Positions 33,556 to 50,978 of a stretch of 64,000 nt of DNA are shown here, piece after piece. Position numbers and translations under genes: made by a program. The stretch covers positions 455,981-519,980 of the forward strand of contig CAVVUS010000011.1 in NCBI GenBank assembly GCA_963751345.1. The letters run 5' to 3'. Below the pieces are notes generated by a model that worked only from the letters and a program-made list of their open reading frames with translations, did not search any database and was not told the DNA's origin. The stretch is from an uncultured Chloroflexia bacterium. Its GTDB lineage: Bacteria > Chloroflexota > Anaerolineae > B4-G1 > SLSP01. Each line of letters starts with the position of its first letter. Within the stretch, counting starts at the first letter, position 1.

Positions 33556-33723
33556 CCATCCCTGATTGTCTGCCCCTCTTTCGACGCTCATCTGAACGCC
33601 GGCATAATCTTCGTCGTGAGCGCCCACGTATCGGTGGGACATTCACATCCGCAGACGGGGCACCACCCGTCTCTACAACGGCAGCGTAGCCGCGGAAAAG
33701 CGACCCACACCCCACCTCCACAC

Positions 33724-33778
33724 TTGATTGGCCCCGTTTCCTGTGCTATAGTAGGGATATGAGATAGAACATAGGTTC
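33724..33778 (+). promoter_or_regulatory. Sigma70 promoter with downstream LexA (Cheo-type) SOS box
   Basis: TTGATT-17-TATAGT with TGn extension; GAAC-ATAG-GTTC at 33767-33778. Confidence 0.7.
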
Positions 33779-33836
33779 CATATTGCCCTGGTGGCACGAT
33801 CTCCCCGATACTCAACACTCCCAGGGAGTGCTGCCT

Positions 33837-34019
33837 ATGACCACCCAACCCGGCGCCGTCTTCCTGGCAAGCGACAGTCTGCACGATGAGTGGACCAGGC
33901 GCCCGCACGTGATCATCGACCGGTTGCCGCTGATGACCGCCGCGGCGGAACTTAGGGCCATGCTCTACGGGTTGCGCCGCACGTGGGGTCCCAGGACAAC
34001 AAGTGAAAGAAACTCTTGA
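33837..34019 (+). CDS. Small hypothetical protein (60 aa), possibly SOS-regulated
   Basis: GGGAG RBS; lies between the SOS promoter and a strong hairpin. No recognisable domain. Confidence 0.35.
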   Translation: MTTQPGAVFLASDSLHDEWTRRPHVIIDRLPLMTAAAELRAMLYGLRRTWGPRTTSERNS

Positions 34020-34047
34020 GAGAAAACCTATGAAAGAGAATACAACA

Positions 34048-34077
34048 CCTACCCGCCGCGCTGGCGCGGCGGGTAGG
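34048..34077 (+). other. Perfect GC-rich hairpin
   Basis: CCTACCCGCCGCGC-TG-GCGCGGCGGGTAGG; no U-tract. Confidence 0.7.
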
Positions 34078-34383
34078 GTGGGCCTTTCGGAGAAGCTGCC
34101 GATCCTTCCAGGCGCATGCCGGTCTTCGGGCACGCCGGCCCAAACGGCAGAGGGTCAGATCCGCGCACCCGCCCCTTGCCATTCGGCAGGCCGCCGGCTG
34201 CCGAAATCCCGCCTCCGACGCCGGTTCCCGTTCGGGCGCGCAACCGTAGGGGCGCACGTAGTCCCGGCATCACCCTCAATCTGCTACCACGCCCGGACCC
34301 GCGATCGCCCCCGCCCCGGGACGTTCATCTTGCCGATAATGGGGAACACTACATTGCCATTGACATCCGCCGGGCGGGGCCCT

Positions 34384-34640
34384 TTACGAAACGAACCCAT
34401 AATGGCCATTGAGCCCCCTGTCCGCCCAAGCCCCATTCATGGGGCGCTGCCATCTAGCCCGGCGACTTCATCGCCGGGCGGGCCTCGCCGGGCGGGCCTT
34501 CATCGCCGGGCTTCGTCCGCCGCGCGGGCCTTCCTACTCCCTCCTATTACCAAACGAACCCATTTTCGCCGCCTCCCCGCTGGATGCGTCCCCGGGGAGC
34601 AGGCCGCTACCCCCCTGTTTTGCGAAACGAACCCATTTTC
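34384..34640 (+). repeat. Three dispersed copies of TT(A/G)C(G/C)AAACGAACCCAT(TTTC)
   Basis: Copies start at 34384, 34547 and 34620; three more on the minus strand at 50404-50549. Confidence 0.9.
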
Positions 34641-34734
34641 CTGCGACCGTCGGTTTGCGCCCCCTCCCCGCCGGGGGTACAATACCCGCAGGCGGTAGAA
34701 CCACGGTCGTATCTCTCATACGAAGGAGGGTAGG

Positions 34735-35238
34735 ATGGCGATCGACTTCAGAGGGCCTTCGGGCGTTCCCCTTTTGCTCAACGTCAATGGTGAGGAGTTC
34801 CACGTCTTTGTCGAACCGCGGCGCACCCTGCTCTCGGTGCTGCGTGAGGAGCTTGGCCTCACGGGCGCCAAGCGCGGCTGCGGACACGGGCAGTGCGGCG
34901 CGTGCACGGTCATTCTGGATGGTGAGACGGTCTACGGCTGTCTGACCCTGGCGATCGACTGCGAGGGCCGCGAGATCCGCACGATCGAGGGCCTCGTCCA
35001 CGGTGAGGATCTTCATCCCGTACAGAAGGCTTTCATCGAGCACGACGGATATCAGTGCGGGTTCTGCACGCCCGGACAGGTGATGTCGGCCGTGTCGCTG
35101 CTCGAACATACGCCACAGCCGACGGAATCCGAGATCCGTCAGGGGATGGCGGGCAACGTCTGCCGCTGCGGCGCCTATCCGAACATCATCGATTCCGTGG
35201 CAGCGGCAGCCGAGATGATGGCCGGAGAGGGGGACTGA
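34735..35238 (+). CDS. Xanthine dehydrogenase-family (2Fe-2S) subunit
   Basis: GCGHGQCGACTV, QCGFCTPG, CRCGAY; own promoter TTGCGC-17-TACAAT at 34655-34683. Confidence 0.95.
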   Translation: MAIDFRGPSGVPLLLNVNGEEFHVFVEPRRTLLSVLREELGLTGAKRGCGHGQCGACTVILDGETVYGCLTLAIDCEGREIRTIEGLVHGEDLHPVQKAFIEHDGYQCGFCTPGQVMSAVSLLEHTPQPTESEIRQGMAGNVCRCGAYPNIIDSVAAAAEMMAGEGD

Positions 35239-35242
35239 CACG

Positions 35243-37585
35243 ATGCCTACGATCCGCAAGACAAAGGTCGAGTTCGAGGGCCGTATCGAGGAACGAGAGG
35301 TTATCGTCGAGGAAGAGCACGTCGAGCCCTGGGGGCGAGAGGCCAGGTTGCGCCTGGTGGGCCAACCGACCCCGCGCGTCGACGGCGTAGCACGGGTCAC
35401 CGGGCGCGCCGTCTACACCCACGATGTGCATCTCCCGCGGATGCTGATTGGGCGATTCCTGCGGTCGCCGCATCCGCACGCCCGGGTCAAGGCGGTGGAC
35501 AGCACCAAGGCCGAGGCGCTGACCGGTGTGGCGCTGGTATGGCATCGCGACCAGCCGCCGCCGATCGGCTATCTCTTCGGCCGCGAGATCTTTCCGGAGG
35601 AGGTCGCCTACGAGGGTGCGGAAGTAGCCTTCGTGGCGGCGCGCGACGAACGCATCGCCGAGGATGCCCTGGCGTTGATCGAGGTGGACTATGAGCCGCT
35701 GCCCTTCGCCTACGACTTCGACGCTGCGACGGCGGAGGGCGCCCCCACGGTCCTCGAAGGCGAGGATAACTGGGTGACGCCGGAGGGCGATGTCTACGAG
35801 CGCGGCGACCTCGACGCCGGAGGTCGGGAGGCCGACGTGGTGGTGGAGCTGACGTTCACCACGCCCCTGGCCTCGCACTGCTGCCTGGAGACCCACGGTA
35901 GCGCCGCGAGCTGGGAGGGCGATCAGGTGACGGTGTGGCACTCCACCCAGAGTGTCTTCGGCACCCGCAGCAGTGTCGCCGATGCCCTCGATATGCCGAT
36001 GGACAAGGTCCGGGTCATCTCGGACTATATCGGTGGGGGGTTCGGCAGCAAGTGGGGGGCCGAGCCCTACACTCTGATGGCCGTCCTCGCCGCGCGTCAG
36101 ACGGGGCGTCCGGTCAGGGCCGTCCTGGAGCGAGGCGAAGAGCACCTCGCCGCGGGCTATCGGCCCGGCAGTTGGCAGCGCGTCCGGCTGGGCGCCAAAC
36201 GAGACGGCACCTTGACGCTGATCGAGCACGAGGCAAAGGTGACCACGGGCGTCTTCGGCGGGGCGGGCCCCGTCATCGGCGGCCCGGCAAAGGACCTCTA
36301 CCGGTGCGCAAATGTGCGCACCGTGGTCTGGACCGCCCGCGCTAACGCAGATCACGCCAGGGCCTTCCGGGCGCCGGGTTACGTCGAGGGCACCTTCGGA
36401 CTGGAAGGCGCGATGGATGCCCTGGCCGACAAGCTCGGTATGGATCCCCTGGAGCTTAGAATGAAGAACTACGCCGAGAACAGCCCCTCGCGCGGTGGAC
36501 CCTATACCTTCAAGGGGCTGCGGCAAGCCTACGAGATGGGCGCTGAGCGCTTCGGATGGTCCGGCACCATGGCGGAGTCGGAGAGGGTGGAGGGCCCCTG
36601 GCGACGCGGTCGCGGGATGGCGAGCCAGATATGGGGCGGCGGAGGTGGTCCTCCGGCGAACGCGATTGTGAGGCTGCTGCCCGATGGCACGGCCGAACTC
36701 AGCGTCGGCGTGCAGGACATCGGCACCGGCACAAAGACCGTGCTGACCCAGGTGGCGGCTGAGGAGCTGGGGCTGCCCCTGGAGGCGGTCCGGTGCATCA
36801 TCGGCGATACGCTGCCGGCGCCGTTCGGGCCGGGCAGCGGCGGAAGCGTGACCCTGGCGTCGTCGACCCCGGCGGTTCGCTCTGCCTGTCGCGAGGCGCT
36901 GCGACAGGTGATCGCGTTGGCCGCCGTGATGATGGGGTTGGAAGGCGCCGGCGTCGACGACTTCGACGTGACGATGGGGAGATCGTCTACCGGCAGGACC
37001 CCGACAAGCGCCTGGGCTTCAACCAGGTGACGGCGAAGATGGGCAACTACACCATCGTGGCCAAGGGCGCCCGCGGGCCCGAACCCCGACGATATGGCGA
37101 TCAACACCTTCGGGGCGCACTTCGCCCAGGTGGCCGTCAACGTGGAGACCGGCCAGGTGCGCGTCGAGCGCGTCGTCGCGGCCCACGACATCGGCCGCGT
37201 GGTCAATCCGATGACGGCGGCGAGCCAGGTCTACGGCGGCGTCATGATGGGCTTGGGGTTTGCGACGACCGAGGGACGCGTGATCGACCCTGACACGGGG
37301 CTGCAGCTCACGGCCAATCTTGAGGACTACAAGGTCCCACTCATCGTCGATACCCCGGCGATCGAGGCGCTCTTTGTGGACGTCGCGGACACCGAGGCCA
37401 ACAGCGTCGGCAGCAAGGGGCTGGGCGAGCCGCCCATCATCCCCGTGGCGGCAGCCATCGCGAATGCGATCTTCGATGCCGTGAGGATCCGGGTGACCGA
37501 CCTGCCGATCACGCCTGACCGTCTGCTGGGCCTGCTGCCGGGCGCTGCGCCGGACGCTGCCGGCGTTCCCGAGGAGGTGAAGTGA
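35243..37585 (+). CDS. Xanthine dehydrogenase-family molybdopterin-binding subunit (frameshifts about 36975-37085)
   Basis: LRSPHPHARV, IGGGFGSK, FRAPG, DIGTG, SKGLGEPP. Confidence 0.93.
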
Positions 37586-38690: not shown

Positions 38691-39066
38691 GCTGATCGGC
38701 GGTTGTGTCGTAGAGACGACCCGGTGGGTCGTCTTCGGCCGCGCAGGCTACTGCGAGTGGGGGCTTCTGCGTCCGGAGACGTGCCACCGGCACGTCTCTA
38801 CGGCGGCGAAGACAGAGCTGATCGGCGGCTGTGTCGTAGAGACGACCCGGTGGGTCGTCTTCGGCCGCGCAGGTACTGCGAGTGGGGGCTTCTGCGTCCG
38901 GAGACGTGCCACCGGCACGTCTCTACGGCGGCGAAGACAGAGCTGATCGGCGGCTGTGTCGTAGAGACGACCCGGTGGGTCGTCTTCGGCCGCGCAGGTA
39001 CTTCGAGTGGGGGCTTCTGCGTCCGGAGACGTGCCACCGGCACGTCTCTACGGCGGCGAAGACAGA
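38691..39066. repeat. BIME/REPIN-like array: three near-identical units of about 125 bp, each an inverted GTAG-REP pair
   Basis: Units start at 38691, 38817 and 38942; GTAGAGACGACCCGGTGGGTCGTCTTC ... GAGACGTGCCACCGGCACGTCTCTAC. Confidence 0.92.
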
Positions 39067-49632: not shown

Positions 49633-50326
49633 TTACACCTCCGTTCCCTCATCGCCCGCGCAGCCGCGATAGCCGAAGTGCTGTGCGCAGAGCGCCGGGA
49701 TGTCGACATCGAGCGTCCAGCCTGTGTCACGAAGCAGCCTGACCACGGCGCCGAGCGGGAGGCCGACCACGTTGGCGTAGCAGACCTCGAGACGCTCTAC
49801 CGGGTGAAAGCCGGGATGCTGGATGGCGTAGGCGCCGGCCTTGTCCATTGGGTCGCCGGTGGCGATGTAGGCCGCGATCTCGGCGTCGGTATAGGGCCGC
49901 ATCACCACGCTCGGTGGTGACGCGGCGCACCTCGACGGATCCTGACGGGCCGGCGAGCGCGACCGCGGTATGCACCCGGTGGCGGCGTCCGCGGAGCGCT
50001 TCGAGCATCGTCCGGGCCTCGGCGGCGTCCGCGGGCTTCCCGAGTGTCCGCCCGTCCAGGTCGACCACCGTATCGGCGGTGAGAACGCGCCCAGCGGACT
50101 GGGCGATGCGCCCAGCGGACTGAGCGATGCGCCCAGCAGACTGGGCGATGGCGGCGAGCGCTTTGTCGTGGGCGAGCCGTGCGGCCAGGTCGGCCGGGGC
50201 CTCGCCGGGCCGCGGCGTCTCGTCCACCTCGACGTCGAGGGTCGTGAAAGGGATCCCGAGCCACCGGAGCATCCGCTGTCGGCGCGGCGACCGGGAGGCC
50301 AGGATCAGTGGGTGTGGTGCCAGCAT
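49633..50326 (-). CDS. maf: Maf family nucleoside triphosphate pyrophosphatase, frameshift near 49905
   Basis: [34 protein letters not shown]. Confidence 0.92.
50087..50149 (-). repeat. In-frame 21-bp tandem repeat, three copies (IAQSAGR)
   Basis: GCGCCCAGCGGACTGGGCGAT x3 with single substitutions. Confidence 0.9.
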
Positions 50327-50403
50327 AGCCGTTAGTATACGCGAAACGCGGGCGAGAGCCATGGTGGAAGCTGATAGCCGGCAGCGGTCGGCATGCGCGG
50401 GTG

Positions 50404-50673
50404 CGAAAATGGGTTCGTTTGGAAAAGGGCGGGAGTAGGAAGTAGGGAGTAGAGGAGTAGGGAGTAGGGAGTAGGAGGAGATGGGGCGGCGAAAATGGGT
50501 TCGTTTCGTAATTGGGGGAGACGGTCGAGAAAATGGGTTCGTTTCGTAAAGCGGGAAGGTGGATGGCGACCGTCTTCTCGGCAACGCGTCTGGCGCAGGT
50601 GGGACAGTGAACCTCCAAGGCGTGCACTTGATCATTTGTTCTATTGTACGACAGGAAAGGTGAGCAATCAAGT
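50404..50673 (-). other. Promoter + LexA-like box + three AAACGAACCCATTTTC motifs (homolog of the 33.7-34.65 kb unit)
   Basis: TTGATT-17-TACAAT; GAAC-AAAT-GATC at 50630-50641; motifs at 50529-50549, 50490-50511 and 50404-50424. Confidence 0.75.
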
Positions 50674-50734
50674 ACGCAGCTCGTGGCCTCGTGCGATCAG
50701 ATTCTTGCTCCTGCCGCATAGTACCAATTTCCTA

Positions 50735-50763
50735 TTGCGCTAGCGTAAGAGATCGGATAGAAT
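50735..50763 (+). promoter_or_regulatory. Sigma70 promoter of the Flp pilin gene
   Basis: TTGCGC-17-TAGAAT. Confidence 0.6.
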
Positions 50764-50822
50764 GTAGTCAGGTTCAGGGGAAGTTTTACACTAGCTCAAT
50801 TAATCATTACGGGAGGATTGCC

Positions 50823-50978
50823 ATGTTGTATTTGCCGAGAGAAGAGGGCCAGGGCCTCGTAGAGTATGCGTTGATTCTGGTTTTGATCGCCATCATCGTG
50901 ATCATCGTCCTGGCGCTGCTGGGTGGCCGGGTCAGCGAGGTCTTCAGCACCATCGCCAGCGGATTGGGTGGAAGCTAG
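50823..50978 (+). CDS. Flp family type IVb pilin (51 aa)
   Basis: EEG|QGLVEYALILVLIAIIVI Flp motif; GGAGG RBS. Confidence 0.93.
   Translation: MLYLPREEGQGLVEYALILVLIAIIVIIVLALLGGRVSEVFSTIASGLGGS

Follow-up and report, generated by a model that had tools for sequence, protein, structure and literature searches.

We analysed a 64,000-nucleotide stretch of DNA from an uncultured Chloroflexia bacterium (the window; positions 455981-519980 of contig C11 in the genome denoted here as G000, which has 5.40 Mb in 49 contigs and 62.8% G+C), in which two units, unit A (33722-34650, plus strand) and unit B (50401-50671, minus strand), each carry a promoter, a LexA-type box, and three copies of the motif AAACGAACCCAT. 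These units are best explained, with a probability of roughly 0.6, as relics of a gene cassette composed of a LexA-box promoter, a gene for a protein of ~260 amino acids (aa) that we call X, and the motif; unit B would derive from X, unit A would be a chimera with a second gene that we call Y (the longer gene behind the 60-aa open reading frame (ORF) of unit A), and the motif would be a cis site at the level of DNA. The cassette architecture, the homology of the units to X and Y, the linkage of X with the motif across phyla, and the LexA-type boxes are plainly seen in the genomes compared. The prototype cassette would consist of the LexA-box promoter, gene X, and the motif as a conserved 3' flank, and the family in G000 would include at least 14 loci, each with a LexA-box promoter, a short and decayed 5' piece of a protein gene, and the motif (~24-30 nt) in one to three copies. 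Most of the units, unit B among them, would be internally deleted X cassettes keeping both ends; the motif would most likely be bound or used by X, and DNA damage would derepress the cassette promoters. Throughout, C-numbers denote contigs, and G002, G004, G011, G013, and G014 are relatives of G000 in the same genus.

A dispersed motif downstream of LexA-type promoters

The motif was found six times in the window, three times per unit as the first-pass annotation of this DNA had noticed, against 0.17 expected, and none of 100 shuffled sequences reached six. The genome of G000 has 28 exact copies. Conservation spans about 30 nt (CCCCCC-n-YWTTRCGAAACGAACCCATTTTCG), the information content is asymmetric over ~24 nt with no palindrome, and a C-rich, G-poor tract lies ahead of each copy. 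The matching 3' flanks described earlier (TTTTCGCCGCC and CGACCGTC) were indeed present in both units, with one correction to the earlier description: AATG, and not TTTC, follows the first motif copy of unit A. Two of the matches in G000 lie inside apparent coding genes (C11:50658, in an EF-G-like frame, and C43:64124) and are probably due to chance.

When these two were set aside and one copy with a single mismatch was added, 16 non-coding motif loci were obtained. A box of the form TAGAA(C/T)A-N3-4-G(A/T)TC was found upstream and co-oriented at 12 of them by a regular-expression scan, nearly all with an evident promoter, and relaxed inspection added the loci on C7 and C13. The genome-wide enrichment of a promoter plus LexA box, proposed in the first-pass annotation as a check, was thus borne out at 14 of the 16 loci, 55-860 nt upstream of the motif. 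Also in the relatives, TAGAA(C/T) comes immediately after a -10 hexamer at all of the five motif loci displayed, three of which have the full GAAC-N4-GATC. The motif was present in 12 of 18 other members of the genus and absent from all 12 genomes searched in two sister families; it reads CGAAACAAACCC in 30/30 listed copies of G004 and 10/10 listed copies of G013.

Within arrays, the copies are separated by irregular spacings of 38-163 nt, and neighbouring spacers resemble one another (e.g., C30:236680 onward, G002:C2:170225 onward, and C12), from which we conclude that the arrays grew by local tandem duplication. A coding function of the motif was considered and rejected, because the frame varies among copies, the stop codon of X in G000 precedes the motif, and the copies in Zixibacteria lie in different frames; three of the 11 motif-to-motif spacings in G000 are multiples of three. 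The motif is hence not confined to one frame of a real protein family, a possibility left open by the first-pass annotation, and yet it is the fixed flank of such a family, as described below. Some public gene calls read through the motif (..ITKQTHF.. in P0039 and ..YETNSF.. in P0068). In the Planctomycetota genome G034 (loci L210-L226), furthermore, several copies are preceded at ~18-21 nt by an ATG in frame, from which M..AH(V/A)K(F/L)PNEPIF would be read, and ~11 of 18 motif spacings are multiples of three, with 63 nt recurring; a small ORF for a repeat peptide is possible there.

The motif is not restricted to the genus. When one genome per species was scanned with CSAAACRAACCCATTTT, at least 118 stretches were matched. 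Since a rough estimate puts the matches due to chance in the 596 Gb at about a thousand, single matches prove little. Nonetheless, an extended left flank (..AAATTA or TTTTG) is common to many of the matches listed, which also include arrays of two or three motifs in metagenome-assembled genomes (MAGs) of Planctomycetota, Zixibacteria, Chromatiaceae, and Isosphaeraceae; many of the cross-phylum matches are therefore considered real. Indeed, five array-bearing genomes of other phyla contain 4-30 copies each, as compared with none for the reversed control. To our knowledge, the motif fits none of the extracytoplasmic function (ECF), sigma-54, and sigma-70 promoters, the IHF, parS, and dif sites, the DnaA box, or the T-arm of tRNA. 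In the literature, we found nothing relevant on a Chloroflexi LexA motif or on SOS-box repeat elements, and exact strings of the unit sequences matched unrelated papers only.

Gene X and the motif at its 3' end

In most units, the box is followed by a Shine-Dalgarno sequence and a short ORF. The origin of these ORFs is indicated by a near-full-length X in G000 (C30:392547, minus strand), which carries two frameshifts, stands behind TATAAT-TAGAATAAACGTTCTA, and has a motif copy 23 nt after its stop codon; it starts with MTGPKRVTEKQLAANRANARKSTGPRTPEGKAISRHNALKHGIL and finishes with ..RYETSLQNQLDRALARLEHLQRLRG... The ORFs of other units start with MAGIKHVTEKQ.., MIGTNHPTDKQ.., or MPGISHITVRQ.., which compare with MTGPKRVTEKQ of X and are read as decayed X starts. 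When the intact cassette of G002 was searched against G000 by blastn, similarity to its 5' part was detected in two units and to its 3' part at 11 loci.

About 30 X loci were examined in total. X was found in five of the 31 genomes searched within the genus (G000, G002, G011, G013, and G014), at one locus each, and all five genes have a motif copy just past the 3' end in the same orientation. Across phyla, an X homologue was present at the motif locus in 14 of the 118 stretches listed, four of which were read base by base, and X-family genes are encoded in all of the five motif-rich genomes of other phyla. In candidate phyla radiation (CPR) bacteria and a Pirellulales MAG, the motif appears as its reverse complement, 0-10 nt past the stop codon of X, and the X frame of locus L052 ends inside the motif. 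In a sample of 250 genomes of the phylum, variants of the motif with 1-3 mismatches adjoin the 3' end of X in three of four X-bearing lineages that were inspected. By eye, X in the Pirellulales MAG (L030) also adjoins an apparent 3' part of a tRNA gene. tRNA genes are common integration sites of mobile elements. At all of the five CPR loci (L018, L052, L059, L099, and L115), X and the reverse motif are followed by a large serine recombinase on the same strand. These recombinases have Resolvase, Recombinase, and mostly Zn_ribbon_recom domains, and an unannotated ORF of 196 aa lies between the motif and the recombinase at L115.

The protein X is all-helical, with a mean pLDDT of 85.9 in its AlphaFold model, and has a very conserved basic N-terminus, KQLAANRANAxKSTGPRTxEGK..NALKHG. 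No match above threshold was obtained in Pfam, NCBIfam, PHROGs, or PADLOC, and nothing significant in a profile search of the PDB; Foldseek and VIA-align returned generic helical and coiled-coil matches only (best Z of 8.6, from helical hairpins), and the neighbours in ESM-Atlas were unnamed. A search restricted to longer proteins gave 532 clusters of the family at E<=1e-3, many of them on contigs of 1-2 kb, and none of the 120 clusters listed has a Pfam domain. In IMG/VR, a single viral contig encoded a relative of X, so that a phage origin of X is unsupported.

LexA-type boxes and probable SOS control

GAAC-N4-GTTC is a LexA motif used also in Chloroflexi. It is given as the LexA motif of Bacillus subtilis and Gram-positive bacteria in a passage of a published paper (PMC3323433). 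In G000, the single lexA gene has the promoter TTGACA-TAGAACAAATGTGCGAC-TATAAT with the box TAGAACAAATGTGC, and recA has the promoter sequence GTAGAACGTTTGTACTATAAT with the box TAGAACGTTTGTAC. Also, boxes of the type TAGAAC-N4-GTTC, mostly full TAGAAC-N4-GTTCTA palindromes, were found upstream of ORFs that we read by eye as radA, imuB/Y-family-polymerase-like, radical-SAM repair, and FtsK-like genes, names unconfirmed by a family search. The unit boxes are of the same type as these boxes and those of lexA and recA. The box of most units, TAGAACAAA(A/T)GATCTAT, has one change in the right half-site, the same half-site in which the boxes of lexA and recA deviate. Unit B has a box of this majority type (TAGAACAAA[AT]GATC), whose left half and spacer are the same as in the lexA promoter box, and the box abuts the -10 hexamer in unit B and most other units. 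SOS control of the units thus has good support in silico, and it is plausible, judged from the promoters compared, that this type of control generalises across the family. A look-up of sequencing runs for this stretch of DNA listed no RNA run, and only DNA runs with a small share of it. The first-pass annotation had read the two units as SOS-controlled and non-coding; the architecture of promoter and LexA-type box proved real and general, whereas there is no support for a novel non-coding unit that would serve as a sponge RNA or as a decoy for LexA.

LexA-type boxes were further found in the X promoter of G000 and at five of nine further X loci. Of the remaining four, one is truncated where its contig stops, and the others, X genes of three loci in other Chloroflexota families, have no box. 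The box abuts the -10 hexamer in G002, G011, and G013 and lies within the spacer between the -35 and -10 hexamers in two X genes of another Anaerolineales MAG; the same operator in two promoter architectures suggests that LexA control of X would have been selected in this class. In Zixibacteria, the lexA promoter showed no obvious match to the 5' module of the cassette, and no lexA was found in G034.

Short copies of the cassette in three phyla

Besides the full cassettes, short copies that keep both ends are dispersed in three lineages. G000 has 14 units and one copy of X. In the Zixibacteria genome G033, the 3' end of X runs to ..AAAAACGCTATACCGAAAAACGAACCCAT.., followed by a hairpin and then GAAAAAGTTGTTTT..TGTGGATAACTT, where the similarity stops sharply, and 13 solo copies fuse the 5' leader of X (..TATATGAAACT..AAGAGGAGAAG) to the 3' end of X. 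In the Planctomycetota genome G034, the X cassette opens with ..GCGCGCCAAGTACTT.. and closes with the motif and a tail of ~60 nt, and its 5' module was found at 17 of 18 motif loci fetched, 85-389 nt upstream of the motif (1353 nt at the X locus itself). In three independent lineages, then, a coding cassette is accompanied by many short copies retaining both of its ends, a pattern characteristic of non-autonomous mobile-element derivatives. A (CTCTTGC)n tract ahead of the motif copies in G034 is the analogue of (TACTCCC)n in unit B. Isosphaeraceae genome G035 was tried as another source of element ends and set aside, since its ~20 X-like matches were too divergent.

The solo elements of G033 (loci L129-L148 and L183) end at TGTGGATAACTT, and a perfect nonamer of the DnaA box is present in most of the 14 copies aligned. 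A second class of motif copies in the same genome is preceded by ..TAGGTTCCCTTTATATG.

Structure of unit A and unit B

The features of the two units and their immediate context are as follows (window coordinates).

33724-33752, plus: promoter of unit A, TTGATT-17-TATAGT (9/12 in a sigma-70-like scan, TG before the -10 hexamer)
33765-33780, plus: LexA-type box of unit A, TAGAACATAGGTTCCA, with a perfect GAAC-ATAG-GTTC core at 33767-33778
33837-34019 including the stop codon, plus: 60-aa ORF (Y), what remains of the N-terminus of a longer, non-X-family gene
34048-34077, no strand assigned: GC-rich hairpin of 13 bp, terminator-like on the minus strand only
34381-34405, plus: motif copy A1 (TTTACGAAACGAACCCAT, then AATG), with AAACGAACCCAT at 34389
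34427-34497, plus: dispersed repeat of ~70 nt with two small hairpins, outside the motif family (blastn, 78-91% identity, at least 9 other contigs)
34544-34568, plus: motif copy A2 (ATTACCAAACGAACCCATTTTCG), with AAACGAACCCAT at 34552
34617-34641, plus: motif copy A3 (TTTGCGAAACGAACCCATTTTCC), with AAACGAACCCAT at 34625
34735-37030, plus: xanthine dehydrogenase (XDH) family genes, 2Fe-2S and Mo-binding subunits, context outside the unit (Pfam Fer2_2 8.9e-32, MoCoBD_1 3e-64, Ald_Xan_dh_C 1.7e-22)
49636-50326, minus: maf-like gene over two frames, context (Pfam Maf 1-109, 6.4e-30, in 49730-50326; 126-186, 1.1e-18, in 49636-49908)
50401-50425, minus: motif copy B3, with AAACGAACCCAT at 50409
50431-50475, minus: tandem repeat of the heptamer TACTCCC (unit strand), 6.3 copies, just upstream of B3 (Tandem Repeats Finder, period 7)
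50487-50511, minus: motif copy B2, with AAACGAACCCAT at 50495
50525-50549, minus: motif copy B1, with AAACGAACCCAT at 50533
50628-50643, minus: LexA-type box of unit B, TAGAACAAATGATCAA, abutting the -10 hexamer, with GAAC-AAAT-GATC at 50641-50630 (one mismatch)
50671-50643, minus: promoter of unit B, TTGATT-17-TACAAT (sigma-70-like, 9/12)

Both promoters, the GAAC-N4-GTTC box of unit A, the 60-aa ORF, and the hairpin were thus found just where the first-pass annotation had placed them, and its 25/33 identity between the two promoters was reproduced by our own count. Sites as good as these promoters occurred on average 0.2 times in shuffles of the promoter region of unit A and 0.1 times in those of unit B.

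Unit B belongs to the majority type, in which the 5' piece derives from X; its start codon is already gone, and by its sequence it is a relic derived from X. The orthologue of unit B in G002 is rearranged, in that the -35 and -10 hexamers, the box, the Shine-Dalgarno sequence, and the motif are kept and the sequence between them has diverged.

The box of unit A begins 13 nt past the -10 hexamer, and its 60-aa ORF is not X-like. This ORF had 26 library matches at E<=1e-3, most of which align its residues ~5-55 to the N-terminus of proteins of 226-422 aa; among ten relatives scanned, two have DnaA_N and the remaining eight have no Pfam family. A paralogue of unit A at C12:77270-77860 shows 88.7% identity over 301 nt including the promoter and box and is divergent afterwards (blastn). 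From the promoter to the box, the two are identical save for two bases within and just after the box. The C-terminus of the ORF is not conserved in this paralogue, where the ORF continues straight into a motif copy, and the hairpin at 34048-34077 sits inside a stretch of ~450 nt that is extra in unit A and missing from the paralogue. Since the 60-aa ORF is an N-terminal fragment of a non-X family joined to the shared motif array, unit A is, from its sequence, a chimera of a LexA-box promoter, an N-terminal remnant of Y (the first ~50 codons), and the motif array. Unit A together with the XDH-family operon occurs twice in the relative G002.

Several other features surround the two units. The repeat at 34427-34497 (..GAGCCCCCTGTCCGCCCAAGCCCCATTCATGGGGCGCTGCCATCTAGCCCGGCGACTTCATCGCCGGG..) resembles a family of the type of repetitive extragenic palindromic (REP) sequences or miniature inverted-repeat transposable elements (MITEs) and is unrelated to the motif. 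A hairpin-bearing stretch 5' of the unit A promoter (33650-33704, GCAGACGGGGCACCACCCGTCTCTACAACGG..) recurs on C3, C17, C27, and C33 and is common to the C12 paralogue and the copies in G002; the similarity among A-type units begins near window position 33601. The promoter region of the XDH-family operon itself (34678-34709) has TACAAT and, 12 nt further on, TAGAACCACGGTCG, a weak LexA-like half box with a spacing like that in unit A. The maf-like gene downstream of unit B contains a tandem repeat of 21 nt in three copies (50087-50150), and its two frames reflect a frameshifted pseudogene or else a faulty assembly. Divergently oriented to unit B, the gene at 50691-50978 (plus) has a weak Flp/Fap pilin match (27.1 bits against the Pfam cut-off of 32.2, E of 3.7e-06), and its label as a pilin rests on this sub-threshold match and the N-terminal sequence. 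In G002 (C6, ~134640-135000, L167), an insertion of ~400 nt with inverted repeats (..GGGTGTGCGTCAGTTTTCCGCA ... TGCGGAAAACTGACGCACACCC..) and the look of a classical MITE lies just upstream of the unit B orthologue. Elsewhere in the window (38691-39066), a 125-nt tandem repeat is present in 3.0 copies with 98% matches.

Possible mobility and alternative explanations

The cassette would spread, or would once have spread, as a mobile element, with the units as its non-autonomous relics. More specifically, the cassette might be an undescribed SOS-inducible mobile or selfish element of Chloroflexota, Planctomycetota, Zixibacteria, CPR, and other mostly uncultured phyla, in which X recognises an asymmetric 3' site of 17-24 bp and promotes copying or relocation without inverted repeats, and of which the units in the window are non-autonomous forms; we regard this version as a tentative one that may well prove wrong.

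A number of observations weigh against such a reading of the units as cassette relics, and particularly against their mobility. At the 16 unit loci of G002 that were compared, most have an orthologous unit in G000, and the copies are therefore old. No terminal inverted repeats were seen by inspection (left end ..CCTTGATTG.., right end ..CCCATTTTCG), nor were target-site duplications at the units of G000 or the solo copies of G033. The two candidates for presence/absence between G000 and G002 were both unclean, one being replaced sequence and the other a 54-nt poly-A in G000. A Zixibacteria locus is filled in two of five relatives, and the upstream synteny is broken there. The nucleotide similarity of most units to the 5' end of the X coding region is weak. 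In the sample of 250 genomes, X was found in five and the exact 15-mer in eight (mostly single and near chance), with no overlap, and no variant motif was found near the three X-like copies of G254. Across the family, PDB, and fold searches, furthermore, X shows no recognisable catalytic or DNA-binding fold, for which reason the action of X on the motif is a guess. Finally, the promoter and box are 94% identical between G000 and G002, only modestly better than the right flanks (88%) and unit interiors (81%), with the left flanks at 62%; selection on the unit promoters is thus only hinted at by these alignments.

The poly-A run just mentioned (54 A, C24:32258-32311) stands exactly where G002 has a three-motif unit. 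Like two other runs in G000, C15:18414-18517 (104 C) and C18:128727-128862 (A/G blocks), it looks like an assembly artefact.

Alternatively, the units might be domesticated modules whose SOS-inducible promoters drive the downstream genes, with the motif as an operator for a damage-induced factor such as X, forming a second-tier SOS regulon. In favour of this, 11 of 15 units in G000 face the next gene by our own reading, the motif stands ~115 nt upstream of XDH-family genes also in the more distant G014, and both the conserved promoter and box in G002 and the elements surviving amid diverged sequence in its unit B orthologue could be so explained. An orientation of 11/15 is, however, near chance, and among 19 copies in Zixibacteria only seven are directed at the next gene, the other 12 being opposed to the 3' end of a convergent gene. 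No common theme unites the downstream genes (XDH-family and maf, and by eye rarA-like and ABC-F-like, among others), several of them have their own promoters, and the presence in each genome of ~30 nearly identical sites of 17 nt, with variants specific to a genome as in G004, fits copying from a master better than an independent origin of operators. We consider domestication unlikely. The ORFs downstream were also examined as one transposase in view of their similar lengths (360-375 aa), and this was dropped because the proteins are unrelated to each other. A different role at the level of DNA would be that of a crossover or att-like site, at which a site-specific recombinase exchanges the cassettes X and Y in an integron-like manner. 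The motif lies 0-25 nt past the ORF stop and overlaps it in L052, the unrelated 5' genes X and Y share the same 3' motif, and the order of X, motif, and large serine recombinase in the five CPR loci would fit as well; but no similar recombinase adjoins the motif in the other loci fetched or occurs anywhere in G000, and no paired inverted repeats like those of attC were seen, which makes this role quite doubtful.

The first-pass annotation itself favoured either a DNA-damage-induced non-coding RNA (ncRNA) with multiple motifs, titrating an RNA-binding protein by a CsrB-like logic, or an array of LexA decoys. The former would account for a promoter and box followed by one to three motifs (up to six in G004) with no long ORF, and the C-rich, G-poor tracts before the motifs would be unstructured RNA. 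The units, however, hold remnants of protein genes (X in the majority type and Y in unit A) and can be explained as gene relics, and the motif is a conserved 3' flank of X in several phyla; depending on the phylum, it lies in one or the other orientation to the transcript of X, which speaks against a role as RNA. Nor did the proposed Rfam and covariation checks help the idea: the only match in the window at the gathering score was a tRNA elsewhere, the unit gave noise at E<=10, the mean folding z over 26 copies was -0.31 on the forward and -0.27 on the reverse strand with no excess folding energy, and RNAalifold was empty on the forward strand and returned a weak 5-bp hairpin (-0.64) on the reverse, so that neither an Rfam family for the units nor a conserved fold around the motif was found. 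An ncRNA of this kind is accordingly very improbable. As for decoys, the motif (CGAAC-CCAT-TTTCG) differs from GAAC-N4-GTTC by a single mismatch and has true LexA-type boxes nearby, and might thus bind LexA and buffer the SOS response. This we find hardly credible, as the variant CGAAACAAACCC loses the CGAAC half-site, which reads CAAAC in all listed copies of G004 and G013, the motif is kept in phyla whose cassettes carry other 5' modules, and the conservation of ~24 nt is asymmetric and non-palindromic.

If the units are indeed relics of a LexA-box cassette with X and the motif, an abundant family of hypothetical proteins with no Pfam model would gain a functional handle tied to a specific DNA site and would, in Anaerolineae, be under the control of DNA damage. 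The motif, which now looks like unexplained intergenic repeats in several phyla, would have an origin, and annotators of MAGs from Chloroflexota, Planctomycetota, and Zixibacteria could mask the relics rather than call spurious ORFs. If X mobilises DNA, it would represent a new class of mobility protein.

Comparison with known systems

The cassette and its units resemble MITEs in that one or two full-length coding copies per genome accompany 10-30 short dispersed copies that keep both ends, and in that the sequence variants of the short copies are genome-specific. They differ from MITEs in that no terminal inverted repeats or target-site duplications were seen and no known transposase is present, and most copies are orthologous in two species and so are old or immobile. 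Mobile or selfish DNA under the control of LexA includes integron integrases, integrative and conjugative elements of the SXT type, lambdoid prophages, and SOS-induced toxin genes such as tisB. As in these, the cassette carries a gene whose promoter is overlapped by a LexA-type operator, while X is unlike any of the integrases, repressors, or toxins found there. Like integron cassettes, furthermore, the cassettes described here have a short conserved site directly past the stop codon, combine different ORFs (X and Y) with the same 3' site, and form direct arrays; unlike them, the X and Y cassettes have their own promoter, the site lacks the paired inverted repeats of attC, no integron integrase was seen, and the arrays contain no ORFs.

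Several short-motif copies downstream of one promoter are also reminiscent of CsrB/RsmZ, but the motif is not placed in hairpin loops, has no conserved structure, and is not fixed in its orientation to transcription. A clustered regularly interspaced short palindromic repeat (CRISPR) array was considered and rejected, given that the spacings of the units are irregular (38-163 nt) and neighbouring spacers are alike, in contrast to regular repeats of 28-37 nt with unique spacers. In being short, high-copy, intergenic, and clustered, finally, the motif is similar to REP sequences and bacterial interspersed mosaic elements (BIMEs). It is distinct from them in that it is non-palindromic, has its copies in direct orientation, is kept across phyla, and is tied to one protein family.

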